Origin: a virus
Taxonomy: Duplodnaviria > Caudoviricetes
Length of the DNA: 64,000 bases
Virus record (IMG/VR): IMGVR_UViG_3300017912_001009
Coordinates: 1 to 64,000 of that record
Strand: one strand, 5' to 3'
Below, in pieces: positions 18,838 through 48,408 of this stretch (its first letter is position 1; the number at the start of each line of letters is the position of its first letter). The notes beneath the pieces were generated by a model. The model saw nothing but the letters and a program-made list of their open reading frames with translations, was not told the DNA's origin and ran no database searches. The position numbers and the translations under genes are program-made.

Positions 18838-20412
18838 CTAATTACCTGTTGCACTACCGCCAAGAGTCATGATTGCCCACTTACCCTTGTAAGTAGCAGT
18901 CGTCAGAGTCCTTGCTGTTATAGATGCCTCTACTTCTACTGGCCCTTTGTCTTCAGGGAAAGGCACTGTAACTGAGTTGATTAGATAATCAGCGAGTTGA
19001 ATGTCTATCTCTTCACCTGAGTCTTTAGTGAACTTCAATCTCAAAGCACCAGTTGATTCGTTGTCGTTTCTCAATTCATCCCACAGTTTCGTATCTGTTA
19101 TGAGCATGGTTAGAGTCAATTCGTATGTTCTCTGTCCGGGTAGATGTGCAGATACAATCTCTCTGTTGTAGTTACCAATGAACCTCTGTGGGAGTATGTT
19201 ATTGTTGATGACAAGAGAGCCACCTTTCACCCTAGCCAATGATTGACCAAATAGTGTTATTGTTCCATCAGAGAAAAGGAATGGGTAGTTGTCTGTTAGA
19301 GTAGAACTGTAATTGACGAAGCCTCTTCCGCCATCAGTGTTGTCTAGGGCAGTTAGGGAAGCGTTACCACCGAGAGGCAAGTATCCATCAGGAGCATCAA
19401 AGGCTCTTCTTGTTACTAAGTCCATTGAACACTTGAGTTCTTGACCCTCTTCAAAATTAAGAGTAAGAGTGTTGACTTGGCAACCTGTGAATATTCTTGA
19501 GTACATATTCTCATTTGGCGTGTTGCTGTCTACGACAGTGGTAGCAGTGTGACCCGCCTTTCGATATACAACATCAAGAGCGAAGGATGGTAGAACATCA
19601 TCATCTGCTTCACTAAAGGTGTAGTTGAACATATCATTTCCTGCAAGGAAGTTGAAGTGTGTCTCTGCTAAGTCTACATTGCTGTTGTTAACTTCAGGGA
19701 AGTTGTTAGCATCGACAATCCTCACTATTCTCTCAGTGCTAACATTGAATCCAACACCATTCTGAGAACCAGTGCCAACACCGGATGAACTGCTTCCAGT
19801 CATTGCACCTAGAGCAACCTTACCTAGTGCGTAGTACAACCAAGAAGCATTGTTGAGTGAGATATCTAGAGAGCCACCTGATACGGTTTCTGCTCCCTTG
19901 TATTGGTAATCGAAGTTCCTACCACCAGCAGCAGCGAGATTCAGTTGCTTCATCTCAACCTCTACGTTTGGTGGGGTAAATGTGTTTACTAGACCTAGCC
20001 AGTTATCAGATAGAATAGTTCCAGTGGATGACTTGATTGGCCCATAGGCTGGTGCGCCAAAAGAGAGTATTGTGAACTCTATCGTTCCTGATGAAACAGC
20101 ACTTCCATTGCTATCGGTTGGAGCAGAGTCTAGAGTGAAGGCAGTTGCAGTGTTAGCAGTGACTGTCCTGTATGTGGTTGCTACGTTTGACTGAGTTGTA
20201 ATCTTAGCAGTGCAGCCAACATAGAGATTTGGAATTAGTTTGGTAACTGCTTGTTGACCACCACTTGAGATATCCCCACCAGTGTCACCACTAGATGACA
20301 TAGTGACTGTCAGACCACTGTTGCTCAATACTGCTTGGTCAAAGAAAAGGTCTAGTTCAGGGCATAAACCCACTTGTGCATTTGCTCCTACGAATACTTC
20401 ATTACTCACCAT
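18838..20412 (-). CDS. Major tail (tube) protein (524 aa)
   Basis: Position upstream of chaperone and TMP; tube-like segments (FTGCQVNTLTLNFEEG, RTYELTLTM, YLINSVTVP). Confidence 0.75.
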   Translation of the reverse strand: MVSNEVFVGANAQVGLCPELDLFFDQAVLSNSGLTVTMSSSGDTGGDISSGGQQAVTKLIPNLYVGCTAKITTQSNVATTYRTVTANTATAFTLDSAPTDSNGSAVSSGTIEFTILSFGAPAYGPIKSSTGTILSDNWLGLVNTFTPPNVEVEMKQLNLAAAGGRNFDYQYKGAETVSGGSLDISLNNASWLYYALGKVALGAMTGSSSSGVGTGSQNGVGFNVSTERIVRIVDANNFPEVNNSNVDLAETHFNFLAGNDMFNYTFSEADDDVLPSFALDVVYRKAGHTATTVVDSNTPNENMYSRIFTGCQVNTLTLNFEEGQELKCSMDLVTRRAFDAPDGYLPLGGNASLTALDNTDGGRGFVNYSSTLTDNYPFLFSDGTITLFGQSLARVKGGSLVINNNILPQRFIGNYNREIVSAHLPGQRTYELTLTMLITDTKLWDELRNDNESTGALRLKFTKDSGEEIDIQLADYLINSVTVPFPEDKGPVEVEASITARTLTTATYKGKWAIMTLGGSATGN

Positions 20413-23643: not shown

Positions 23644-24345
23644 CTATGCCAACCACTTTGCCCAAGCAACCCCTTTACTCAAAGCACCAGCGAGTCCAAG
23701 ACCACTAGTTGGTGGGGTGTATGATGGTTGACCAGTATTGGGGTCTATCCAATACGGGTTATTGTATTGGTCATATCCAGCAGGTGGAATAGGATATCCT
23801 GATTGATTGTTAAAAGCCATCTGCTGTTGCATCATCTGCTGGTTCATTCCTCCCATAGCAGGTGCGCCCTGTATGTTAGTAGGTGTGGCCTGTGGCATTC
23901 CTTGCTGTTGCATACCACCCATCTGTGATTCTTGTGATGGTGAAGCAAAGCCTTGTGACTCTAGGTACTGTTGCTTTGCCATTCTTCTCTGCATGATGAC
24001 TTCCGAGTTAACAGCAGTCGATAGTAGATTCACAATATCCAAGTCTATGTTCTCTTGCGTGATGGTGGTAAACTCCGATAGTGAATCGGGGTGTATTTCC
24101 AAGTCACCGTTGGTGTTGGAAACGAATTTCATTTTGACTAGCATCTGACTGACAACTCTAGTCACTACATCTTCCAGCATTTTTTCAAACGCAGTTAGGA
24201 ATGGTTCTCCATGATACTGAAAGAATTCTTCCACATGATTCTCTTGCAAAGTTAAGAGATTGTTAGTCATTTTAAAGTTGGCTTGCCCCATTGTATTAAT
24301 TTGGGAAGACAAGGCCGAGTTGCTCGTTCCGAATACACCCATCAC
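23644..24345 (-). CDS. Hypothetical protein with Q/M/G-rich low-complexity region and amphipathic C-terminus (233 aa)
   Basis: Contains QMGGMQQQGMPQ...QQMMQQQM; ends GLAGALSKGVAWAKWLA. Confidence 0.7.
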   Translation of the reverse strand: MMGVFGTSNSALSSQINTMGQANFKMTNNLLTLQENHVEEFFQYHGEPFLTAFEKMLEDVVTRVVSQMLVKMKFVSNTNGDLEIHPDSLSEFTTITQENIDLDIVNLLSTAVNSEVIMQRRMAKQQYLESQGFASPSQESQMGGMQQQGMPQATPTNIQGAPAMGGMNQQMMQQQMAFNNQSGYPIPPAGYDQYNNPYWIDPNTGQPSYTPPTSGLGLAGALSKGVAWAKWLA

Positions 24346-25022
24346 TCGCCACCTTCCTGTGCCTCAATCTTAACGCCTTCGGTCAATAAAGATTTAATCT
24401 TAGCAGACATGGCAGTATTCTGTATCATCAGAGCATAGAGTTGCTCTTCCTTCGATGAGTTCTCACTAACTGGTGGCTCTACTGTCCATCCTAGAGATGT
24501 AAGAGAATTAATATCCTCTTGCTTCAGTTGTGTTATCGGCCCTGACTTTACTAGGTTTACTGGATTCAGACTCCTAGCAGAAGGAATATAAGCACTGAAT
24601 GAAAGTCCATGTTCCTCTGCTAGTATTTGCTGTTCTAGCATCTCATACTGCATATGTATTGCTGCATGTTTCTCACAGTATGTTCCTCTCATTGGATATC
24701 CCTTGCGAACCTTGTGCAGTGGAAGCGGTGGTCTTCTAGTGTCGTCTGCTGTCCAAAACTTCTGTGTTCCACATATCACACATCTATCTTTGTAGTTGTA
24801 CTTGAAGGAGTAAGGTATCTTGAGAAATGTTTTCTTCTCAGGTTTCAATACCTTCACTATTTCTTTCAACTGTTTCTTTGGTTTCAATGCCTTATACTCA
24901 TAAGCCATTATTGGCCCTGCTGCTCTTGCAGCAGTCAACCTATCCATGAATGGATTAGGGCCAGCATTCACTGTTGCGTTCGTTGCTCCTATCAAACTAG
25001 GGGGGTTAAATTGCATGGACAT
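24342..25022 (-). CDS. Putative zinc-binding protein (226 aa)
   Basis: CVIC...YCEKH ligand set. Confidence 0.6.
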   Translation of the reverse strand: MSMQFNPPSLIGATNATVNAGPNPFMDRLTAARAAGPIMAYEYKALKPKKQLKEIVKVLKPEKKTFLKIPYSFKYNYKDRCVICGTQKFWTADDTRRPPLPLHKVRKGYPMRGTYCEKHAAIHMQYEMLEQQILAEEHGLSFSAYIPSARSLNPVNLVKSGPITQLKQEDINSLTSLGWTVEPPVSENSSKEEQLYALMIQNTAMSAKIKSLLTEGVKIEAQEGGE

Positions 25023-25082
25023 TTTCTGTTTCTCCTACCAATCTAGGTCTACCCTGCGGTAAGACCTGACTAATCTGACGCA

Positions 25083-25754
25083 TCAGTAGTCTTTTATCAT
25101 TGTTAATATTCCACGATAAACCATTTCAGAGTCTGACTTAGCACTCACTATGTACTTATGACAAGGTATTCCAGTTTCATTCAACTTCTGCAATCCCGGT
25201 CTGAAAGATTCAAAAATAGGATGATTCTCTATTTTTCCATCATAGGGATACTTGTCTTTCCATAAGTCATACTTGTTTGCCCAAAGACCGACAGCCAAGG
25301 GATAGTCGTGGTCTTGCTTCTTCTTCTTTCTACCACCAATTGTCCAATATGGATTGCAGATAGTATCAACTAGAAATGTCCAAGATAACTGCTGCTCTAT
25401 GTCATAGTGCTTGCTTAGATGTCTGTCATCAAACATGAAGATGATGTATTTTACATGCCTTCCTCGCATGTCTCTAACCCATTCTTCCCAATAGACAGTC
25501 TGCCCACCTATGTCAGCAGTCTTTACAGTATGAGCATCTCCATCTAGTTTGACGAACTTGCGAGTAGCCCTGTGTCTGCCTACTGTACGTTTCTGTATTT
25601 CAGGCACTTCTCCTCTAGTCATCAGTTGTTTATGCAGTGTAGTCTTACCTGCTTGACTTGCACCATAGATGCCGAAATTGATAGCGTGAAGCCGATTATA
25701 CAACTTGTTCATTGCTTCTACAATCAGTATTGCAAAACCTGCCATTACCGACAC
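25083..25754 (-). CDS. Small Ras-superfamily (Arf/Sar1-like) GTPase (223 aa)
   Basis: G1 GASQAGKT, G2 RTVG, G3 DIGGQ, strand IIFMFD, G4 ANKYD, G5 SAK; hydrophobic/amphipathic N-terminal helix. Confidence 0.85.
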   Translation of the reverse strand: MSVMAGFAILIVEAMNKLYNRLHAINFGIYGASQAGKTTLHKQLMTRGEVPEIQKRTVGRHRATRKFVKLDGDAHTVKTADIGGQTVYWEEWVRDMRGRHVKYIIFMFDDRHLSKHYDIEQQLSWTFLVDTICNPYWTIGGRKKKKQDHDYPLAVGLWANKYDLWKDKYPYDGKIENHPIFESFRPGLQKLNETGIPCHKYIVSAKSDSEMVYRGILTMIKDY

Positions 25755-25808
25755 ACTATCACCTCGTCAGTGAGTCGGATGTCGCAGAGCATTAAAATGG
25801 TTGAGAAG

Positions 25809-26030
25809 TCAATGACCGCCCCAAAGAGAACTGAGTACATGCCATCCAACTTCATACAAATTGATTCCCCAAAGAGAGATGGCATGACCTACGAAGAAAC
25901 TTGCAATAGATGCGAATGTTCCCCAAAGCCAAAACCTCGCTCTTAGAAACCACACATCAGCAGAGTGCGCTCTTTGTAAGTCATAGGCTAGAGTAGATTC
26001 ATCCATTCCAAATAGGATTTCACTTACCAT
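25809..26030 (-). CDS. Small membrane protein (73 aa)
   Basis: Hydrophobic, Trp-rich segment FWLWGTFASIASFFVGHAISLWGI. Confidence 0.65.
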   Translation of the reverse strand: MVSEILFGMDESTLAYDLQRAHSADVWFLRARFWLWGTFASIASFFVGHAISLWGINLYEVGWHVLSSLWGGH

Positions 26031-26035
26031 CTAAA

Positions 26036-26464
26036 TCACTCATTGAAACCTGTTAGGAAGGTAGGACTGACCGTTTGCACTTCCTGTGATGGCTGCATCA
26101 CTGGAAGGTTTTGGTCTCCGTATACTGTTGGTGTTGTACCAAACTGCTGTTGGAAGCCTCTGAATGACTCCCTAACTCTCTTACGGTTCTCCTCATCTCT
26201 TGCCTTTCTGTTCCAATAAGCGTTGATTTGTCGCTGAAGTAGAAAGTCCTCTATGTAGTCATTAATCATCAAATCGAACAATGCTTTCAATATGACAATG
26301 CCACCTACTGTGAGGACACCGAATATCATAGCCACTGGATAAGGGCCATAGGCATTTACGAATGTAGAACCGTATTGTGAGAAGAAGTACACATTGACTC
26401 CACTAACTGCTCCAACAAAAAGAACAGTCATTATTAGTCTAGTATCTGTATCTATGCTTGGCAT
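26036..26464 (-). CDS. Two-TM membrane protein with charged/Gln-rich tail (~142 aa)
   Basis: Hydrophobic segments LIMTVLFVGAVSGVNVYFF and VAMIFGVLTVGGIVILKALF; ATG at 26464 follows GAGGTGA. Confidence 0.7.
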   Translation of the reverse strand: MPSIDTDTRLIMTVLFVGAVSGVNVYFFSQYGSTFVNAYGPYPVAMIFGVLTVGGIVILKALFDLMINDYIEDFLLQRQINAYWNRKARDEENRKRVRESFRGFQQQFGTTPTVYGDQNLPVMQPSQEVQTVSPTFLTGFNE

Positions 26465-26474
26465 ATTAATCACC

Positions 26475-26771
26475 TCAAGCAAAGTTCACAGAGACAGTTC
26501 CTGTGCCAGTAATCTGAACATATATTCCGTTGGCTACAAGAACGCCATGTAGGTCTTGCTCAATGGTTTGAGCAGTGCCTCCTGCATGTAGAACTATTCG
26601 GGCAACCTCCTTCTTGCCTGATGTTGTAGAGTTGTCACTGTCCCATATCTTGACAGTCATTAGAGCGTTAGCCGTTGATGTGGCATGAACGCTCATTATC
26701 TTAGCATGATGCTTTACTGCTACTGTGCTAGTAGAAAGAACTCCTGTGCTGTTGCAGGTGGGAGTTGACAT
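26475..26771 (-). CDS. Small beta-rich virion protein (~98 aa)
   Basis: Ends GIYVQITGTGTVSVNFA; lies close to the capsid genes. Confidence 0.5.
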   Translation of the reverse strand: MSTPTCNSTGVLSTSTVAVKHHAKIMSVHATSTANALMTVKIWDSDNSTTSGKKEVARIVLHAGGTAQTIEQDLHGVLVANGIYVQITGTGTVSVNFA

Positions 26772-27235
26772 CACTCTGCCCCCGACATTCTCTCCACTAG
26801 GTCGGCTTTCTTGCCATCAGTAGATAGTCCCTTTTCCTCAAGCATTTCTTTTAGTTGCTTCACTGTATATTTTGAGTAGTCAACAGCCTCTTCTTCAACC
26901 TCTTCAGGCTCTTCTTCTACGGGAGTCTCCTTAATCAGATTTGGAATGAAAGACTTCTTCTCAGAGGGGAATAGTGCAGTCCTTACTGCCTTTGCATCTC
27001 CCTCAAGGTTGAACTCTTTTTTGAGTAGGTTTAGGAGATACTCGTTGAGTCCGAGTATATCACCTGAGTCTGTTGAATCTAACTCAACAGTTAATCCGCT
27101 ATCTCCTAGCATTCCTATTGCTATTCCTAACGGAACTTTTGTTTCTTCTTGCGCTGTTAATGCGTATGTTTGACCGCCTCTTCTCAAGATGAGAGGGCCA
27201 GTCGGTCTATGTCTAACTAACTTTACTTTTGCCAT
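26771..27235 (-). CDS. Protein with C-terminal SAP/HeH DNA-binding motif (154 aa)
   Basis: YSKYTVKQLKEMLEEKGLSTDGKKADLVERM matches the SAP consensus. Confidence 0.7.
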   Translation of the reverse strand: MAKVKLVRHRPTGPLILRRGGQTYALTAQEETKVPLGIAIGMLGDSGLTVELDSTDSGDILGLNEYLLNLLKKEFNLEGDAKAVRTALFPSEKKSFIPNLIKETPVEEEPEEVEEEAVDYSKYTVKQLKEMLEEKGLSTDGKKADLVERMSGAE

Positions 27236-27672: not shown

Positions 27673-29034
27673 TCAAGCACTCTTGATGTTGGTTATCTTT
27701 CCTTGTCCCTTGAAGAACGAACATCCGGTTTCACCCATCGTTCGGTACATTCCTTGGTTCCCAAGTTTGCCAACACCGAATGGGTTTCCGCTAGTGATAC
27801 CATCCTCAAAGTATTGAGTAGGCTTCATCACCGATAGCCACAGATGGTCTGTGTCTAGGATGAGTATGTCACTCAACTCGTTGGTTGTGTTGCTACCAGT
27901 AGATGGCATGTCCTTGGTTGGGATAATTGGGATGTCGTAGTATGTTGCAACTCTGAATCCAACTTCCTGTCCCTTAACTCCACGAACTCCGTTGTGGGTT
28001 GGAACAATCTCCTTCCTGTCCATGAACCTCTCTTGGCTTTGTAGCAAGTCAGCAAGGTGCTGAACAGTGTCGTAGCCAGTCAAGATAACTTTCGGGTTTC
28101 CGCCGTTCTGCCTGATTCTCCTAATCATGTCGTTAAGCATGGTTAGAGTTAGAACTCTAGCATCGCCAGCAGCATATCCTGCACCGAAGTCAACCTCTGC
28201 ATCCAAGAAGGAAGCAGTTCCAGTTGCAGCGTTGCTGCTGACGGAAACAGTTCGGGAAGTACCGAATAGTCTTACTACATCAGCGACTACTGCGGAGTTG
28301 TCTCCGTTGTTAGCACCAGTGTCCAATAGGTTTGCGTTATACATAGCAGCAATCTCACCAGCAGAGGAAACTATCTTCATTAGAGATGTGTAGTTTCGCT
28401 CGATGGTTGTTGCAGTTCCGTCATCATACCTCTCAAGAGGCATAACTAGCATCTTGCTCTGAGTCTCTGCGTGTAGTTTACCCATGTCCTCTCTAACGAT
28501 TGCACGAATGTCACCAACACCGTCATCAATAGCAGCAAGTTCCATACCAAGTTCCGAGAACTCAAACAAGTGAGCAATCGTCTTTGGACTGACGTATAGT
28601 TTCTCATACTGAGGTGCAATTGGTGGGATATCGTTTCCAGTTCCTAGAGTTGCGTTCTCACCAACACCACCAATCTTGTCTGCTCTTGGTGTGTCTGAAC
28701 CTTCAGCACCAGTTCCGATTCCGAATGCAGAACCTGAGCCACCCTGCGCTCTGCTCTTTAGGACTCTCCATCCACTGGATGTGTAGGGTCTCTTTGCAAG
28801 CATAGCAAGAGGGTTAACCTCTTGGTTTAGCATAGACCATACTTTCTGTCCGTAGAGAACGTTGTATAGGTCTCCCAATCCACTAGCAGCAGAAAACGGG
28901 TTGCTTGCTGCATCGTGGGGCGTTCCGAAACCACCGACAACACCAGCAGCCTTTAGCAGAGCATTGCCCTGTGCGCCAGCATAGCCGTAGGTGGCTGCTT
29001 CTAAGTCTTTTACTGTGTTAATATATCCACTCAT
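27673..29034 (-). CDS. Major capsid protein, HK97 fold (453 aa)
   Basis: Follows the prohead protease; C-terminal VATYYDIPIIPTKDMP...ILILDTDHLWLSV pattern. Confidence 0.85.
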   Translation of the reverse strand: MSGYINTVKDLEAATYGYAGAQGNALLKAAGVVGGFGTPHDAASNPFSAASGLGDLYNVLYGQKVWSMLNQEVNPLAMLAKRPYTSSGWRVLKSRAQGGSGSAFGIGTGAEGSDTPRADKIGGVGENATLGTGNDIPPIAPQYEKLYVSPKTIAHLFEFSELGMELAAIDDGVGDIRAIVREDMGKLHAETQSKMLVMPLERYDDGTATTIERNYTSLMKIVSSAGEIAAMYNANLLDTGANNGDNSAVVADVVRLFGTSRTVSVSSNAATGTASFLDAEVDFGAGYAAGDARVLTLTMLNDMIRRIRQNGGNPKVILTGYDTVQHLADLLQSQERFMDRKEIVPTHNGVRGVKGQEVGFRVATYYDIPIIPTKDMPSTGSNTTNELSDILILDTDHLWLSVMKPTQYFEDGITSGNPFGVGKLGNQGMYRTMGETGCSFFKGQGKITNIKSA

Positions 29035-36854: not shown

Positions 36855-37127
36855 TCACTTCTGAGAGAACTTCCTTCCTGTTGGGACATGTTGCTTTCCT
36901 TTCTTACGACCCTTTCTTTTCTTTCTGTCTTGATAGTCCAATGTCTTCTTCGGGGTTCTTTTGTATGTGGCCTTTGGCATGTATCTCCCCTTTGTCTTGG
37001 AAGGTACTTTCTTCCCCTTCTCCTTTGCACGATGTTGCTCTTGGCTTCCCCACTCCTCATCTGTCCAAGTAGCCAAGTCCTGTTGTGTCTTCTTCTTGGC
37101 CTTGAGAGTTGCAAACCAATCAGTCAC
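36855..37127 (-). CDS. Highly basic W-motif protein (MTDWFATLKA; ~90 aa)
   Basis: GTG at 37127 follows GGTGGTGG and is in frame with the tracked ORF; K/R-rich. Confidence 0.7.
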   Translation of the reverse strand: MTDWFATLKAKKKTQQDLATWTDEEWGSQEQHRAKEKGKKVPSKTKGRYMPKATYKRTPKKTLDYQDRKKRKGRKKGKQHVPTGRKFSQK

Positions 37128-37920
37128 GGTAGCCACCACCTGCTTTCTTGTATCTCTGAGCAAGCAACTGTGCCTTCCTCGCTGACCACTTACCAGCAGG
37201 GCCACCTTTGCTACCTGCTTTGATTCTCTGAAACATCCTCTTTCTCATACCGGGCTTTGTGTAGTTTCCTGCTTGATTTACTTTGGACTTGCTTTTCCTT
37301 TTCTTGTGCAGGATGTCTTGCCACTTCTCAATCTTAGATTCAGATAGATATGCATCAGCAATCAGAAGCCCTGCTTTCTTTCCTACCTCTATATCGCTTG
37401 GATAGTGATTTCCCATTTTCACCCTAGATAGTGATATCTTCTCTGCCATCTTGTTCAACTCCTCTTGCTTGTCGGGATACTGCTTTCCTAGAATTCTTGC
37501 TAAAGCATAAGCCTCTATTGCATGACCACTTGGGAAAGATGGACTGTCATCCGTATCGGTTGTGGATTCTATCTCATCAGAAATCTCGTAAGGTCTTGGT
37601 CTGCCGTACTTGACTTTCAGTTTGATGGTGTGGATATCGATATCCTCAATCAAATCCTCCCTGTCTTCCTTCTCTTCACCGACAATTTCCAACATCATCT
37701 CGATGTTATTTTGGTCTAAGTCCTCAATCTCATCCTCGTCAATCTTATTGTCCTTCATCATGGCGAGAACCTTTGGCAGTTCCTCTTCGTTATCAGGATG
37801 CTCGTATTCAGGGAAGTCTACCTTGAAGGATGGCTCAGACTCAAACAGTCTTCTCTTCTCCTCGGATAGATTCTCAGGAGTGAACTTTGATTCCTCTTTG
37901 ATTGCGTCAAACCAACTCAC
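37120..37920 (-). CDS. PAP2-superfamily phosphatase with N-terminal W motif and basic C-terminal module (266 aa)
   Basis: PAP2 triad K-x-x-Y-G-R-P-R-P, SFPSGH, SR-x5-H-x3-D; starts MSWFDAIKE; internal KWQDILHK precedes NYTKPGMRKR...GGGY. Confidence 0.8.
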   Translation of the reverse strand: MSWFDAIKEESKFTPENLSEEKRRLFESEPSFKVDFPEYEHPDNEEELPKVLAMMKDNKIDEDEIEDLDQNNIEMMLEIVGEEKEDREDLIEDIDIHTIKLKVKYGRPRPYEISDEIESTTDTDDSPSFPSGHAIEAYALARILGKQYPDKQEELNKMAEKISLSRVKMGNHYPSDIEVGKKAGLLIADAYLSESKIEKWQDILHKKRKSKSKVNQAGNYTKPGMRKRMFQRIKAGSKGGPAGKWSARKAQLLAQRYKKAGGGYRD

Positions 37921-42923: not shown

Positions 42924-45803
42924 TCACCTGAAGTTCGCTTTGAGGAAATAGACCCCCTCTTGTGGAATACCGTACTTAGTCCCAATATTACTCATTGAGT
43001 CTAGTTCCTTGACAACCTTCTCTACTTCCATAGCAGACATGTCTACATTGTACTTGTCGTTCATCAGGTCTATCGCCTCTGAAACCGCATCGTAGTTTTC
43101 TATATTGGACATGCCATAGTAAATCGGCTTTCCTAGCATCTTCCTGATTTCATCGTGAGCCTTGAGAATCAATGTCTGTTCCTCGGACTTCGTTATCTTC
43201 AAGTCCGTTTCTGCTTGTACTATGTTTCCAATCAGCCGTTCTGAACCCTTGACCTTATCCTTGTATGTCTCCTTATTGGATATGAGATGATTGAGAACTG
43301 CCTCAAATGGATATACCTTGCTTGCCTCATAATCCTTAGCCCACTCGCTCGTTGGTTTCTTACTTCCTCCTAGCCCGAACTCTTTGGCATCCAAGCCTGA
43401 CTCATCGAATATATTGTGCAAGAAGTTTCCAAACTCCACATTGACTGCATTGGTTATCTCACCGTCATAGATGTCATCTATCTCATCTGCTAGTTTCTTG
43501 GTTGTCTGCAATAACTCATTTTGCTTTGACCCTACATTCAGGCCAGTCAGCAGTTGGGAGAAGTCTCGTATATTCTCTATTTGACCTAGACTCAGACTGA
43601 ACTCATTGCTCTCCATCCTTAGAAGTGCTATAAGAGGACTCACCTCTGCATTAGTCTCCATCGCTATGTTTTCAATAGGGCGACTACCAACCTTCTCAAT
43701 AAACTCAAGTGGTATGTCTGATGGTTTGAACTTACTCCTACTAGGCTCTATGTAGAAATTTACTATCGCTTTTATTAGGTCTTCAAACTTATCACCTATA
43801 TTCAGTCTGTTCAGTTCCTTGATGTGAGTAAGCCCTGCTCCTGCTCTACCGAATGAGGCTCTAGGAGAACGTGCTTCTCTCATAGTCTCACCTTCCTTCG
43901 TTTTCCTCTCCTGTTGTCCAAGACCAACACTGCCAGCCTTTGAGCGTCTTTCAAAATCAGTGCCGAACTCTATGAACTCGTTGACTGTTTCCAAATACTT
44001 CTGAATTCTTTCGTGAACCTTAGCATCATCATCTGAAGTTCTACCTAGTTCCTTCATCACTGGAAGATACAATTCCCTTACCGAACCAACTTCCATTTGC
44101 TGCAAGTCCTTTATGTGACTCTCCAAGCGAGGTATCAAGTCACCCATATCGATGATAACAAGACCAGTCTTCATCCTTCTTTCGATTTCACGCAACTGCT
44201 TCTTTAACGATGCTCCTGCGACTAACGCTCCTGTGTCATCCCTCTCTGCTGCGTAGGCATATAGAGGGTCTACCTTTATCTTTGAGAATGAGTTTATCTT
44301 ATCCTTCAACTCATCTTCACTATCTAAGTTCTCTAATTCGTCAACCATTGCACCATAGTCACTCATTGGTATTTCGTCTATGGTCTTCTTGTCTTCGTCA
44401 AGCATTGTGATATCTGCTTTTGGTAATTGTGCATTCTCTTTCAAGAACTCCATTAGAAGTGAGATGGCCTTGTCTTCTATGTTGGCTATGTCTTCAATCT
44501 CCACTCTTTCGTAAAGGGCAATGTAATTCAACTCCTCAACCTTGAAAGCAACAAACTCATCAAAGACCTTCTTCAACTCAGAAGAATACTCATCGCTGAT
44601 TTGGTCAATGGCATCCTTGAAGGCATTGTGTGCTTCCTTGAAATCCTCAAACTCAGAGTTTATTTTCTTCCAATAGTTGTAGATTTCTTGTCTTCTCTTT
44701 CTGTCCTTGGTATCTACTCTGCCCATTATCTCAGAAGCCCTTAGTGTGGAGATGCTATACCTTCCCTTGCCCTCTGTCTTCTTCTGCCCTAATTCCTTAA
44801 GCATCGTTTTGAATGGATACATGATAGGAATCAGATACTCAGGTATCGAAGTATCCAGAATCTTAATTGCTCTGTCGGTGTCCATTTTGTCGAAGCCCAA
44901 TCTGATATTCTTCTTGACATAGTTCTCCCATGCTCTATTCCTAGTTAGTGTCCTTTTCGGACTGCGAAACTTATCGAAGTAAAACTTGACTATCTTCTCA
45001 TCCAAGGGTTCTCCCCTTAGTCTGAACAACCCTAGTATGTCTAGCAAGTCCTTGTCCTGCTTGACATTGTTCACCACTTCAGAGGCAGTCATCTTGACTC
45101 TCTCTGAGTCACCTGCTTCCGACACTGCCTCAAACCCTAGAGTCATTACCTCCTCTAGAAGCGGCTTTCTCTTTCTTGCTGGAATCTGCTTGAAACTTGG
45201 GAACTTCTTTTCTACCTCATCTGTGACATCCTCTAGAACTGCTCTAGGTTTCTTCGTTGTTCCATCTGCATTTAGAATGAGCCTACCTTGAAGGTTCTTC
45301 CCCCTCATTATCGCAATGTCGCTAGAGCCTCTAGAGTTTGACTTACTCTGCAAGTAGACGTAAAGCACATCATCGGGGAAGGCTTTCATGTCACGCAGTT
45401 TCAACTTCTCGGTGACTTTTCCTTTAGGTGCAGGGGCTTCTCCTATCTCCTGCTTGAGCCTAGCAATCGCCTCCTCCTTGTTGAACTTAGCAGGTACTGG
45501 CTCTTCTATCTCGACTTCTTTTTCTTCAAACTCTCTAGTTTCAGGGTTATACTCGCTTCTCTTGACTTTCTTTTTCTTTTGAGTGTATTTCTCAACTCCC
45601 CTTCTCTTCAGTTCTGCTATGACTTCCTTATACGTCATCTCATCAGGATTCAGTCGCTCTGCAATTGTCGAGTCAGTAGTCTTAGGATTACCTTGCTCAT
45701 CGAAGTGTTCAGCGTTCAACCTATCCATGTATGCTTCAAGAGCATCCTCGCCACCTTCCATGAGGAAAGAAAACGCCCTGTTCAAATCGACTTCGGGCTT
45801 CAT
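42924..45803 (-). CDS. Very large charged helical protein (~959 aa)
   Basis: ATG at 45803 overlaps the upstream TGA; SAP/HeH-like MTYKEVIAELKRRGV near the N-terminus. Confidence 0.75.
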   Translation of the reverse strand: MKPEVDLNRAFSFLMEGGEDALEAYMDRLNAEHFDEQGNPKTTDSTIAERLNPDEMTYKEVIAELKRRGVEKYTQKKKKVKRSEYNPETREFEEKEVEIEEPVPAKFNKEEAIARLKQEIGEAPAPKGKVTEKLKLRDMKAFPDDVLYVYLQSKSNSRGSSDIAIMRGKNLQGRLILNADGTTKKPRAVLEDVTDEVEKKFPSFKQIPARKRKPLLEEVMTLGFEAVSEAGDSERVKMTASEVVNNVKQDKDLLDILGLFRLRGEPLDEKIVKFYFDKFRSPKRTLTRNRAWENYVKKNIRLGFDKMDTDRAIKILDTSIPEYLIPIMYPFKTMLKELGQKKTEGKGRYSISTLRASEIMGRVDTKDRKRRQEIYNYWKKINSEFEDFKEAHNAFKDAIDQISDEYSSELKKVFDEFVAFKVEELNYIALYERVEIEDIANIEDKAISLLMEFLKENAQLPKADITMLDEDKKTIDEIPMSDYGAMVDELENLDSEDELKDKINSFSKIKVDPLYAYAAERDDTGALVAGASLKKQLREIERRMKTGLVIIDMGDLIPRLESHIKDLQQMEVGSVRELYLPVMKELGRTSDDDAKVHERIQKYLETVNEFIEFGTDFERRSKAGSVGLGQQERKTKEGETMREARSPRASFGRAGAGLTHIKELNRLNIGDKFEDLIKAIVNFYIEPSRSKFKPSDIPLEFIEKVGSRPIENIAMETNAEVSPLIALLRMESNEFSLSLGQIENIRDFSQLLTGLNVGSKQNELLQTTKKLADEIDDIYDGEITNAVNVEFGNFLHNIFDESGLDAKEFGLGGSKKPTSEWAKDYEASKVYPFEAVLNHLISNKETYKDKVKGSERLIGNIVQAETDLKITKSEEQTLILKAHDEIRKMLGKPIYYGMSNIENYDAVSEAIDLMNDKYNVDMSAMEVEKVVKELDSMSNIGTKYGIPQEGVYFLKANFR

Positions 45804-47656
45804 TGACCTACCCCCTGTGATATCTGAATCCAAATCGCAGGTTCTACAAAGCCGCCATCGGGACTAGGTATCTTAGTACCCATGACCTTGCCCTCTGCAC
45901 TGATGTCCTTCATTCTATTCTTTACGTTGTCAAGGAATGCTCTCCTTACTTTAGGATACATTTCGATAACTAACTTCTTGAAATCTTCACTGCTTATACT
46001 TCCTTCTTTCAAATCCTCTTCATCTATCTCAGTCTCATACTCACCGAAGAACTCACTCAATCTCTTCAGTGTGATGATAATCTTATCCAGTGTCCCATCG
46101 TTTGCTGGATTCTTAGATGGGGTTAGATTGTCACTTATCGTATCTTCAAGAATAGACCAAGCATCAGAGTTCTTCTCCTCCACGAAATATCTGAGTTTGG
46201 GTTTGTCTAAATCGAGAGATTGCATTCTGTTTGTCTTTCTATTGAGTCTCATATTTTCTAAAGCACCAATAACATCATCGATGTCTCCGACCTCTTCCTC
46301 AATATCATCCATATTCTCAAACTTATCATTGATTCCTAGTTTCTTTATGGCTGCTGTGAAGTTCTTTGCGGAGTCATCCTCTAGTGCTTCGACCAACTCA
46401 TTCCTTATCTCTTCGGTCATAGCGTTGCTTGTGTCACCCGATACCTCTGCCATCACTTCTTTGAATGCGGCATTCGCATCCTCGTCTGCCTTGATATCTG
46501 CAAACATTCTTCTCTTTGCTTGGTTGCCCTTTCTTGAGAGACTGTCATACTTGTTTCTGTTGTCTTCCCTGAGTTTGATTCTCTTTTCTTTCTCCTCATC
46601 GGACTCGCCTTTAGGCCCAAACCAATTCTCTATGTCTTCCTTGTACTTATCGTAAATGACGCTTATGCTTGGCTCGTCTATTATTTCGTCTATTATCTTC
46701 CGCAAGGCTCTTTCCTCTACGTTACTGCGCTTCTTGTAGGATGTCGGAATTGCAGATTGATTCAACTCTTCGTTTTCTAGTATGAATTCCAAGGCAGGTG
46801 ACAGCACCCTAGTCCCGAACAATATCAGAGTCCCGGAGTCTGTGTTATCAGTGATGAACGCCCTCTTCTTATCTCTGACTGACGAGATGTTCATTATCTT
46901 CTTGATGTAGTCAATCGCTATATCGTCACTGATGCTAGTCCCAATCTCTACTTGAGGCACACCACCTATCTTGAGAATCTTCTTGATTTCAACTAGTTCA
47001 GGATACTTGTCCTCTGCATCGCTTAGAATTGCTCTTCTCAGAGTCTTGTTCGTCTGTATGAATCTCCTCACTCTTTGGTTACTCGCATCTAACTTAGCAG
47101 CATACTTCTTCTTTCCTCTTCCTTGTAGGACTTTCAGGAGTTCTTCGTACTTCTTATTCTTGATGAAACTCTTTACATCAGCATCGAGATTGCCCCTGAT
47201 GTTTCCTTGGCTGGTCTTCTTTGGTTTTATATCATTCAATCGAGCAATGACCTTATCGACATCATCCACAACTTCATCTTGTAACTTGAAATCTGTTCCT
47301 CCGATGTTCACGACTTCCCCTTGGAGGAGTTTCTTGGCTTTCTGAACATTCCTAATTGTGTAATTATCTAAACCGTCTTTCGTAAACTCCGCCCAAGTAT
47401 CATCATTAGACGCTGCTTGCCAAATCTCAAACGTTGGTGTGCCTCGCTTTACTGGAAAGTCCTTCACTTCCTGTTTGCCGAAATCGAAGAGATTCGCATT
47501 CTTCGTCTTTGCAGACTCCTTCTGTCTCTCTAACTTTCTTTTTCGGTCTCTGTGAAACTTCGCTCTCTTACCTGACTTGTCCCACGTTCCCATTACTGGC
47601 TTTTCAACTGGTTTAGGGCCAGTTTTCTTTTCCTTGAGAACGTCTTGCCAACTCAT
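45800..47656 (-). CDS. Large W-motif protein (MSWQDVLKE; ~618 aa)
   Basis: ATG at 47656 overlaps the upstream TAA; basic N-terminus, acidic C-terminus. Confidence 0.75.
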   Translation of the reverse strand: MSWQDVLKEKKTGPKPVEKPVMGTWDKSGKRAKFHRDRKRKLERQKESAKTKNANLFDFGKQEVKDFPVKRGTPTFEIWQAASNDDTWAEFTKDGLDNYTIRNVQKAKKLLQGEVVNIGGTDFKLQDEVVDDVDKVIARLNDIKPKKTSQGNIRGNLDADVKSFIKNKKYEELLKVLQGRGKKKYAAKLDASNQRVRRFIQTNKTLRRAILSDAEDKYPELVEIKKILKIGGVPQVEIGTSISDDIAIDYIKKIMNISSVRDKKRAFITDNTDSGTLILFGTRVLSPALEFILENEELNQSAIPTSYKKRSNVEERALRKIIDEIIDEPSISVIYDKYKEDIENWFGPKGESDEEKEKRIKLREDNRNKYDSLSRKGNQAKRRMFADIKADEDANAAFKEVMAEVSGDTSNAMTEEIRNELVEALEDDSAKNFTAAIKKLGINDKFENMDDIEEEVGDIDDVIGALENMRLNRKTNRMQSLDLDKPKLRYFVEEKNSDAWSILEDTISDNLTPSKNPANDGTLDKIIITLKRLSEFFGEYETEIDEEDLKEGSISSEDFKKLVIEMYPKVRRAFLDNVKNRMKDISAEGKVMGTKIPSPDGGFVEPAIWIQISQGVGQ

Positions 47657-48309
47657 TGTAACTTCTCCTGCATCTTGTCCCTTACATCCAACCAAACTTC
47701 AGGATGGTTCTGTGCTAGAACCTCCTTGATGACCTGCATCTGATGAACGATGATAGTGTCTTGCCTCTTATGCACCAGTTTGCCCTTGAATTCTAGCAAA
47801 TACTTCAGAGACTCACGAACTTCCTTCGCTAATTTCGTCAAAGAGTCGATATATTTCGGGTCTGTTGAGTCTTCAGCAAAAAGTGTATCAATTTTTTGCT
47901 CCAATCTCTGAACATTCACACTCAGAGTCTCGATTTCGTCAACTTCTCTAGTTGCAATCAGGTTTGCAGCAGATTGTTGGACAATTGGCTGAAGATGTTT
48001 ATCCATATGTCGCATAACTTGAGCCTCAGAGCAGTTTAGCATCTTCCCGACTGCCGAAGGAGTCACTTCTCCGGCATGAAGTTCCGCTTCTATCTCATGT
48101 CTCATGGGACTTGTGCAGATATTGCAACTAGGATTGGCAGATTCCACATATCCGCCCATGTGATTCCTCTGATGCTTCGCTGTTGTGCCGCTTTTCCAGT
48201 TCATTTGTTGGTCGAGAGCGTCTGCTGTGTAATTCATGGCTTCCAAATCAGCCTCAAGTTGACTTCTATCCTCATGCATACACAAAGGACAACGCTTTCT
48301 CGTAATCAT
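47653..48309 (-). CDS. Tandem CxxC-HTH-HxxxH protein, candidate terminase small subunit (~218 aa)
   Basis: Two repeats (CPLC...KHQRNH; CNIC...RHMDKH) followed by a coiled coil; upstream of terL. Confidence 0.5.
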   Translation of the reverse strand: MITRKRCPLCMHEDRSQLEADLEAMNYTADALDQQMNWKSGTTAKHQRNHMGGYVESANPSCNICTSPMRHEIEAELHAGEVTPSAVGKMLNCSEAQVMRHMDKHLQPIVQQSAANLIATREVDEIETLSVNVQRLEQKIDTLFAEDSTDPKYIDSLTKLAKEVRESLKYLLEFKGKLVHKRQDTIIVHQMQVIKEVLAQNHPEVWLDVRDKMQEKLQ

Positions 48310-48408
48310 ACCCACTCAAATCCAACAATTGGTGAAGCAATACGGGCAACAAGTACCCACTGCCATGTTCTCGACATTCACCTTTCTTATTCCTCTACAC
48401 TTCATCTA

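Follow-up and report, generated by a model that had tools for sequence, protein, structure and literature searches.

The only prokaryotic small GTPase with a shown role in shaping membranes is ArvA of Haloferax volcanii, an Arf-like protein with an N-terminal helix, which drives vesicle formation together with ArvB and the Zn-ribbon protein ArvC (PMC10927574). In Asgard archaea, structures of the ArfR protein GerdArfR1 are available (PDB 8OUN and 8OUM; bioRxiv 10.1101/2024.02.28.582541), and a mobile-like region in one Asgard genome was reported to contain Arf GTPases (PMC11529989). Here we describe a small GTPase gene that belongs to a virus. It is located in a cassette at positions 23644-26464 of a DNA stretch of 64,000 nt (referred to as the window), which corresponds to positions 1 to 64,000 of the record IMGVR_UViG_3300017912_001009, an 89.8-kb IMG/VR virus that is 93% complete. 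The cassette consists of five co-oriented genes on the minus strand in the order TM148, W73, GTPase, Zn226 and QMG233. We found that these five genes are co-conserved across a deep divergence, and very probably they encode a membrane-associated GTPase switch module with a role late in infection.

The genes are densely packed, with intergenic gaps of 5, 54 and 60 nt and an overlap of 1 nt between the stop of Zn226 and the start of QMG233. The first gene, TM148 (26036-26464), lies in an open reading frame (ORF) that opens at a TTG at 26482; read from the ATG at 26464, it encodes a protein of 142 amino acids (aa) with two hydrophobic segments (residues 15-35 and 46-74), i.e. two transmembrane (TM) segments, and a long charged, Q-rich C-terminal tail. 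From the positive-inside rule we infer an N-in/C-in topology. W73 (25809-26030) is a 1-TM peptide of 73 aa with six Trp residues, one moderately hydrophobic segment and the Trp-rich C-terminus GINLYEVGWHVLSSLWGGH. The small GTPase (25083-25754), recognizable by its motifs G1 to G5 and its N-terminal helix, has 223 aa and a GTG start, just before which the sequence GAGGTGAT is found. Zn226 (24342-25022) has 226 aa and is characterized by the conserved motif C81-x2-C84 ... C116-x2-H119 and by the basic stretch KPKKQLKEIVKVLKPEKK. The last gene is QMG233 (23644-24342). Its product of 232 aa, read from the ATG at 24342, contains a conserved core of approximately 100 aa, a disordered middle part rich in Q, M, G, N and P, and a hydrophobic, G/A/W-rich C-terminal tail, GLGLAGALSKGVAWAKWLA. 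An initial annotation of the window had placed the same five co-oriented genes here, with these properties.

The conservation of the cassette was analyzed by gene calling and clustering in 167 loci. Lineage 1, to which the window belongs, comprises 554 IMG/VR stretches, and lineage 2 at least 565 metagenome stretches and 280 IMG/VR stretches. In lineage 1, the 2-TM gene followed by the 1-TM gene is found upstream of the GTPase gene in 81/81 loci, with TM148 orthologues (46-52% identical) keeping their directly upstream position in all of them, while Zn226 and then QMG233 follow downstream in 68/70 loci. The GTPase of lineage 2 (about 243 aa) is approximately 30% identical to that of the window. 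It is preceded by a 2-TM protein of about 153 aa and a 1-TM protein of about 74 aa in 70/71 loci, and followed by a gene for about 325 aa and a gene for about 212 aa in 56/59 loci. Usually an additional 2-TM protein of 84 aa comes after the downstream pair in lineage 2, and none is present there in lineage 1. The same cassette order was detected in lineage 1, in the lineage-2 magroviruses and in an unclassified 59-kb element (L005). Further, the GTPase gene is present on 12 of 12 IMG/VR contigs that were picked by their capsid gene alone, and marine metagenomes contain 356 protein clusters homologous to the GTPase, the best 120 of which are 62-95% identical and located on contigs of up to about 100 kb. 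The number of protein clusters and of IMG/VR stretches in both lineages and the nearly constant gene order show a degree of conservation that rules out chance. Synteny in related viruses, which the initial annotation had proposed as a check, was thus found for all five genes.

The strength of conservation was compared over the 29 loci which hold all eleven neighbouring genes. The GTPase tops this ranking of the genes of the region with a mean pairwise identity of 0.82, followed by the capsid protein (0.79), Zn226 (0.74), W73 and the prohead protease (both 0.72), QMG233 (0.71) and TM148 (0.68). For three small genes located upstream, the values are between 0.42 and 0.53.

For the two soluble partners, homology between the lineages is detectable at the profile level. 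Using hhalign, Zn226 was found to be homologous to the gene for about 325 aa downstream of the lineage-2 GTPase (probability 95.6%, E 1e-8, 122 columns), and QMG233 to the gene for about 212 aa in the same position (91.9%, E 7e-7, 99 columns), while the maximum probability among 18 control pairs was 32%. In a joint alignment of 35 sequences from the two lineages, the ligands of the CxxC...CxxH motif are at least 90% conserved. The homologues of QMG233 in both lineages start with an invariant Met-Gly in the context MG[LVW]F[GS], which resembles an N-myristoylation-type N-terminus; we know of no myristoylation in archaea. Hidden Markov models (HMMs) built from five sequences gave no link of the partner genes to L005, and the deeper profile-profile comparison linked the Zn and Q-rich proteins alone.

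The two membrane proteins are conserved across the lineages in position and architecture alone. A 2-TM protein of 138-198 aa takes the place of TM148 in lineage 2, in L005 and in the locus L177, and a 1-TM protein of 70-80 aa with a C-terminal end of the VW-x-W type takes the place of W73 (whose orthologues show 39-65% identity) in the same loci and in L007. The membrane proteins of both lineages are alike in size, topology, charged post-TM region and Trp-rich C-terminus.

The GTPase of the window contains the motifs GASQAGKT (G1), RTVG with the G2 Thr, DIGGQ (G3), NKYD (G4) and SAK (G5), the last of which is the wording of Ras/Rab. All five motifs, already recognized in the initial annotation, are invariant in 28 lineage-1 homologues: G-x4-GKT in G1, Thr57 in G2, D81-x-G-G in G3, N160-K-x-D in G4 and S204-A-K in G5. 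In larger sets, G1 and G4 are kept in 62/62 sequences of lineage 1 and in 70/71 and 71/71 sequences, respectively, of lineage 2, and DxxG is retained in both lineages. This shows that the predicted nucleotide-binding motifs are under strong purifying selection. The residue after DxxG, which corresponds to Gln61 of Ras, is variable: in lineage 1 it is Q in 39/62 and E in 23/62 sequences, in lineage 2, where the motif is often D-x-A-G, it is Q or D, and in other branches H or A. Such variability points to a slow switch or to hydrolysis by a non-canonical mechanism. In addition, the protein has a polybasic loop (RKKKK) between G3 and G4 and an HPIF-x-x-FR block between G4 and G5.

Ahead of strand 1, an N-terminal helix is predicted at residues 2-22 of the GTPase. 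The first half of the corresponding segment, VMAGFAILIVEAMNKLYNRL, is plainly hydrophobic and the second half is amphipathic (hydrophobic moment, muH, 0.38-0.52); as a feature, the helix is conserved in both lineages, and it occupies the place of the membrane helix of Arf, Sar1, ArfR and ArvA. We considered whether it could be a TM anchor and set this aside, since the stretch of about 10-12 hydrophobic residues ends at Glu13 and is too short to cross the membrane. One structure model each was made for the GTPase and for Zn226, both of middling confidence. The AlphaFold2 (AF2) model of the GTPase shows the helix followed by a Ras-like G domain, with a predicted local distance difference test (pLDDT) score of 67, which drops below 50 at residues 35-65. 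Foldseek matched this model to the Ras domains of G-alpha proteins and to RhoA, KRas, Rab, Gtr1 and Arl8b (E 1e-6 to 3e-8, probability 1.00). The Zn226 model reached a pLDDT of 62 and showed no clear fold in a search of 48,161 chains (best Z 4.4).

With G1 to G5 in order and a Ras-like alpha/beta fold, the protein belongs to the Ras-like superfamily of the TRAFAC class P-loop GTPases, while its family is less obvious. On the window protein, every Pfam GTPase family stays below its cut-off, with sub-threshold scores for Roc (23.9 bits, cut-off 27), MMR_HSR1 (19.3, cut-off 21.9) and Arf (16.4, cut-off 22.3), and from NCBIfam just the generic small_GTP domain was found, likewise under its cut-off. 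When 31 family members were analyzed individually, the Pfam matches were scattered over MMR_HSR1 (12), Roc (8), SRPRB (6, sub-threshold), Ras (4) and Arf (4, at E<=0.01). Several of the most distant full-length relatives, such as P0176, P0203 and P0206, pass the Pfam Arf cut-off, and one distant relative was named SRbeta by IMG. In family-wide profile searches, the best solved relative is GerdArfR1 (PDB 8OUN; E 4e-7 and 2e-7), followed by Arl8 (1e-4 to 4e-4) and Ras/Rab (about 1e-3), so that ArfR and Arl8 are the best profile matches among all solved structures. In the match with GerdArfR1 the N-terminal helices are aligned as well. According to a protein-language model, the neighbours of the GTPase are bacterial and Asgard clusters annotated as Arf.

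In common with the Arf family, including ArfR, the viral protein has a Ras-like G domain after an N-terminal helix and, in lineage 1, the G3 wording D-x-G-G-Q ... W. It differs in its sub-threshold Arf score, in its G5 wording (SAK), in its additional polybasic loop and HPIF-x-x-FR block, and in its origin from a virus of prokaryotes. Moreover, the Arf-type DxGGQ with the catalytic Gln is not a family-wide property: lineage 1 has DxGG[Q/E] and lineage 2 mostly Dx[A/G]G[Q/D], the GG doublet of Arf being replaced by A-G in much of lineage 2. Because of the scattered Pfam matches of the members, the loss of the GG doublet and the variable Gln61 equivalent, we do not call it an Arf. Based on its sequence, we regard it as an orphan family within the Ras-like superfamily, for which the Arf/ArfR/SRbeta clade shows the closest affinity. 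In the initial annotation the protein was designated Arf/Sar1-like. This is correct in that the nearest relatives are of the Arf type and that an Arf-like N-terminal helix is predicted, and it should be read as resemblance, not as membership; the Arf-like DIGGQ, present in the window, turned out to be lineage-specific.

The family is isolated, since a profile search of 1.84 billion representative proteins gave just 87 matches. In a scan of genome contigs, the GTPase was found on two contigs only (NZMJ01000101.1 and NZMJ01000024.1, loci L010 and L011), both labelled as a metagenome-assembled genome (MAG) of Maricaulis sp. They carry a magrovirus capsid gene and the whole cassette, and almost certainly represent mis-binned magrovirus DNA and not bacterial genes. 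The search of a phage collection yielded no homologue of the GTPase. A distant homologue of 264 aa (P0140, E 4e-25) was detected on a 10.9 kb contig of the Logan assembly of SRR31155651, which harbours a phage integrase and Tad2-like and Acb5 anti-defence genes and has no small TM genes upstream of the GTPase gene. Thus, the family may reach into other phages, with other partners. Among viral proteins, the sole structural matches to the GTPase model in BFVD were Ras/Rab proteins of giant viruses (Nucleocytoviricota). The GTPases of giant viruses are recent captures of eukaryotic Rab, Ras or Ran genes by viruses that infect eukaryotes, while the family described here is deep and orphan, occurs in viruses of archaea and has its own partner genes.

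In archaea, the nearest working precedent is ArvA with its partners, the ArvABC (OapABC) system. Both systems have a small GTPase of the archaeal world with a loose Arf affinity and an N-terminal helix, encoded in an operon with a zinc-binding partner, and Pfam files ArvA under MMR_HSR1, which is also the commonest match of the viral family members. The partners are different, however: the GTPase of the virus is accompanied by two proteins with TM segments, one with a CCCH motif and one that is Q-rich and tail-anchored. OapB (PF09846) had no match in the 89.8-kb record, in contrast to the control genomes of Haloferax and Methanosarcina, and OapC (PF09845) gave no match over the cut-off in five magrovirus genomes and two weak matches outside the cassette. 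Since it has neither OapB nor OapC, the cassette is at most an analogue of ArvABC. As ArvA of a euryarchaeon exemplifies (PMC10927574), small Ras-like GTPases also occur outside eukaryotes and Asgard archaea, the groups from which the initial annotation had called the fold best known. Further parallels are SRbeta and Sar1 with Sec12, GTPases of the Arf clade which work at a membrane with a membrane-anchored partner, as proposed here; neither an SRX/longin nor a Sec12-like partner was detected for the viral GTPase.

Marine Group II archaea are abundant in the ocean, and in its surface waters magroviruses belong to the most abundant viruses. We read the window as a magrovirus, a group-B-like tailed virus of Marine Group II (Poseidoniales), because a ligase inside the head module and a ribonucleotide reductase are both present in it. 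The head module of magroviruses includes a ligase, and group B has a ribonucleotide reductase (Philosof et al., PMC5434244). All window genes from about 55 kb down to position 1 are on the minus strand, among them the terminase, portal, ATP-dependent DNA ligase and S78 prohead protease genes as well as those for the SU10/HK97-type capsid protein (27673-29034) and the tail tube protein (18838-20412), while the ribonucleotide reductase is encoded at the plus-strand end of the window. With its counterparts in the haloarchaeal tailed viruses HVTV-1 and HCTV-1, the capsid protein shares 25-28% identity. In HVTV-1, seven small genes are located between the capsid gene and a gene for about 340 aa that precedes the tail-assembly chaperones, and no homologue of the GTPase was found in this virus.

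The lineage-2 records are also magroviruses, with four near-complete genomes whose capsid proteins are 43-46% identical to that of the window. In lineage 1 the cassette is embedded in the structural block, between capsid-proximal genes and connector/tail genes. In lineage 2 it shares the strand of the capsid gene and is located approximately 21 kb upstream of it, two to three genes before a homologue of the window gene 47653-48315, and the genes for capsid, connector (g361 homologue) and tube are found within about 5 kb, leaving no room for the cassette. Therefore the position between head and head-tail genes, which the initial annotation had given for the cassette, applies to lineage 1 alone. 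Beyond the cassette, hhalign revealed no relation between the genes that adjoin it in lineage 1 and those in lineage 2. From the distant site in lineage 2 and from the lack of other shared neighbours it follows that the cassette is an independent unit which moved within the late, co-oriented gene block; in both lineages it is co-oriented with the structural genes. In lineage 2 (e.g. L102:525-5582), C5 and N6 DNA methyltransferases and GP88-family (PF17338) proteins form an array of variable composition ahead of the cassette; some of them are fused and reach up to about 790 aa.

The element L005 (with L013 and L014; ENA ERZ27315313 k141_745542, 59.4 kb) has the cassette order with one inserted acidic protein of 252 aa, which ends in a run of about 30 Asp residues. 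Its Zn-like gene clusters with lineage 2. In this element, many small membrane proteins are encoded beside the cassette, together with two glycosyltransferases, a TFIIB-like protein, RNase T and a serine recombinase. The 36 kb examined showed no gene for a capsid, portal or terminase protein, and one weak match to a tail-fibre PHROG was found. In PHROG and Pfam scans, no names were obtained for the genes of L005 and for the lineage-2 neighbours, except for the DNA methylases and GP88. The L005-type GTPase had no match in IMG/VR.

What could be the function of such a cassette? The probable role of its product as a membrane-associated switch acting late in infection is suggested by the membrane-type helix of the GTPase and by its partners, three to four of which have membrane segments or a hydrophobic tail. 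It is further suggested by the tight coupling of the genes, their co-orientation with the late block, their mobility as a unit and a conservation above that of the capsid protein. For a more specific role, the comparison with phage lysis cassettes such as lambda S-R-Rz and P2 Y-K-lysABC is informative. Like the viral cassette, these are compact and movable units of late operons, and they encode two small membrane proteins, one with two TM segments and a charged C-terminal tail and one with a single TM segment. Their two classic sites are the beginning of the late operon, as in lambda, and the interval that separates head from tail genes, as in P2, and the two positions of the viral cassette, at the head of the late genes and between head and tail genes, we take to be the same. 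In contrast, we know of no lysis cassette that contains a GTPase, and the host lacks murein. Lysis families of Pfam and PHROG (holin, endolysin or spanin) gave no match to any cassette protein, with the reservation that holins are too diverse to exclude a holin-like function on this basis. The statement in the initial annotation that the window has no recognizable holin, endolysin or spanin agrees with our scan of about 30 window proteins, among which none was found; this check covers the window in part. In a TM scan of the late block, no small strongly hydrophobic protein was detected beyond those of the cassette.

Based on these observations, we rank a GTP-gated function in egress or lysis first, tentatively and at slightly less than an even chance. 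The reasons are that the cassette contributes the sole clear small membrane proteins of the late block, that its positions match the sites of phage lysis cassettes, and that, according to a review on entry and egress from 2024, which lists pyramids, budding and undefined membrane disruption, no lysis mechanism is known for tailed archaeal viruses (PMC10791045).

It is tempting to speculate how such a system might operate. The cassette would be a self-contained five-gene unit around a membrane-binding GTPase switch, co-expressed with the structural (late) genes. At a late stage of infection, its two membrane proteins would mark a site at the cytoplasmic membrane, and the GTP-bound GTPase would dock at this site via its N-terminal helix, with the charged cytoplasmic tail of the 2-TM protein as the likely contact. 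Then the Q-rich, tail-anchored protein would be recruited, and the membrane of the host, which has no murein wall, would be locally remodelled or ruptured, letting out the assembled tailed virions. In its full form, with docking of the GTPase on two viral membrane proteins and GTP-gated triggering of the zinc and Q-rich proteins to open or bud the archaeal membrane, this scheme is possible and rather doubtful.

Several points weigh against the interpretation as a membrane switch for egress. The start of the N-terminal helix is more uniformly hydrophobic than the classic amphipathic helix of Arf. Since the Gln61 position of Ras can be occupied by Q, E, D, H or A, it is uncertain whether hydrolysis, be it intrinsic or assisted by a GTPase-activating protein (GAP), takes the usual route, and the GTPase may be a slow switch or a nucleotide sensor. 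Zn226 had no match in Pfam, PHROG, NCBIfam or PDB sequences, and QMG233 had no family or PDB-sequence match and no usable match in the protein atlas. The roles proposed above for both proteins are guesses, since they match no known fold or family. When their profiles were compared to PDB, the best match was botulinum neurotoxin A (chain 6mhj_A, E 0.39), which we took as chance. The profile similarity between TM148 and W73 and their lineage-2 counterparts was not significant (hhalign P 0.04 and 0.016, respectively). As the membrane proteins are without demonstrable cross-lineage homology, a part of the module is defined by position and architecture. Last but not least, the argument from the sites of lysis cassettes is an analogy to bacteriophages.

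If egress is not the function, the cassette could drive vesicle formation or budding in the manner of ArvA, without lysis of the cell. The vesicles might serve as decoys or in the spread of viral DNA, or provide an envelope in non-tailed relatives. Such a role would be in line with the helix at the N-terminus and the Zn-ribbon partner of the ArvA system (PMC10927574), and with the cassette of L005, which stands beside glycosyltransferases and many small membrane proteins on a stretch with no head or tail gene in the 36 kb examined. However, OapB (PF09846) and OapC (PF09845) are not in the cassette, and its partners were unrelated to ArvB and ArvC in the searches made. Further, magroviruses are head-tail viruses, which need no envelope, and the weak tail-fibre match suggests that L005 may be tailed, too. 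We therefore regard vesicle formation as an unlikely explanation, albeit the first of the alternatives to the preferred egress function.

Next in rank, and also unlikely, is a membrane-anchored organizer of assembly or of a virus factory, which would tether prohead, packaging or tail assembly and use GTP as a checkpoint. Phage T4 starts its heads on the inner membrane, and the location of the lineage-1 cassette within the structural block, its conservation on par with the capsid protein and its co-orientation with late genes in both lineages would fit such a role. The situation in lineage 2 argues against it, since there the cassette is about 21 kb away from the capsid gene, and the capsid, connector and tube genes are contiguous without it. 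Moreover, the related haloviruses with a homologous capsid protein lack such a GTPase, and by eye no W-x-x-x-L-K tag is present at the N-termini of the cassette proteins. Finally, a module for host takeover, superinfection exclusion or conflict, which alters the host envelope or blocks a secondary infection, would agree with a mobile cassette with own membrane proteins in different elements and with the anti-defence genes on the contig of P0140, but is improbable: PADLOC matched none of its defence families to the 10 cassette proteins of both lineages, accessory conflict genes turn over fast while the GTPase is conserved above the capsid protein and present in every contig tested, and the cassette is co-oriented with late and not with early genes.

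The identification of this cassette is important for several reasons. As a core gene set, it equals the capsid protein in conservation, and it provides five concrete proteins as candidates for membrane action and virus exit. In the magrovirus literature searched and in a survey of archaeal tailed viruses, a GTPase is not mentioned. The present analysis adds that the soluble partners are homologous at the profile level, that the residues of G3 vary and that the cassette relocated within the late block, and it puts figures to the gene order and to the ranking of the genes by conservation. If the preferred egress function is true, the cassette would become the first known egress system of tailed archaeal viruses and the first small-GTPase membrane switch used by any virus of prokaryotes, one which arose outside the Asgard-eukaryote line. 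Besides the Asgard ArfR proteins and the euryarchaeal ArvA, a deep, virus-borne family in viruses infecting Euryarchaeota widens the range of Arf-like GTPases. This bears on arguments in which Arf-like membrane GTPases are treated as markers of the road to eukaryotes.

Some other genes of the window deserve mention. Between the capsid-proximal genes and the cassette, the gene 26771-27235 encodes a protein of 154 aa with a C-terminal SAP domain (PF02037, E 7e-11); with a mean identity of 0.42, no other gene of the block is less conserved. A phosphatase of the PAP2 superfamily (E 3e-13) is encoded at 37120-37920, between the portal and ligase genes. The late-block gene 45800-47695 encodes a protein of 631 aa with a weak N-terminal match to Vps4_C (E 0.003, below the cut-off). 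It is located directly downstream of 47653-48315, the gene whose homologue comes after the cassette in lineage 2.

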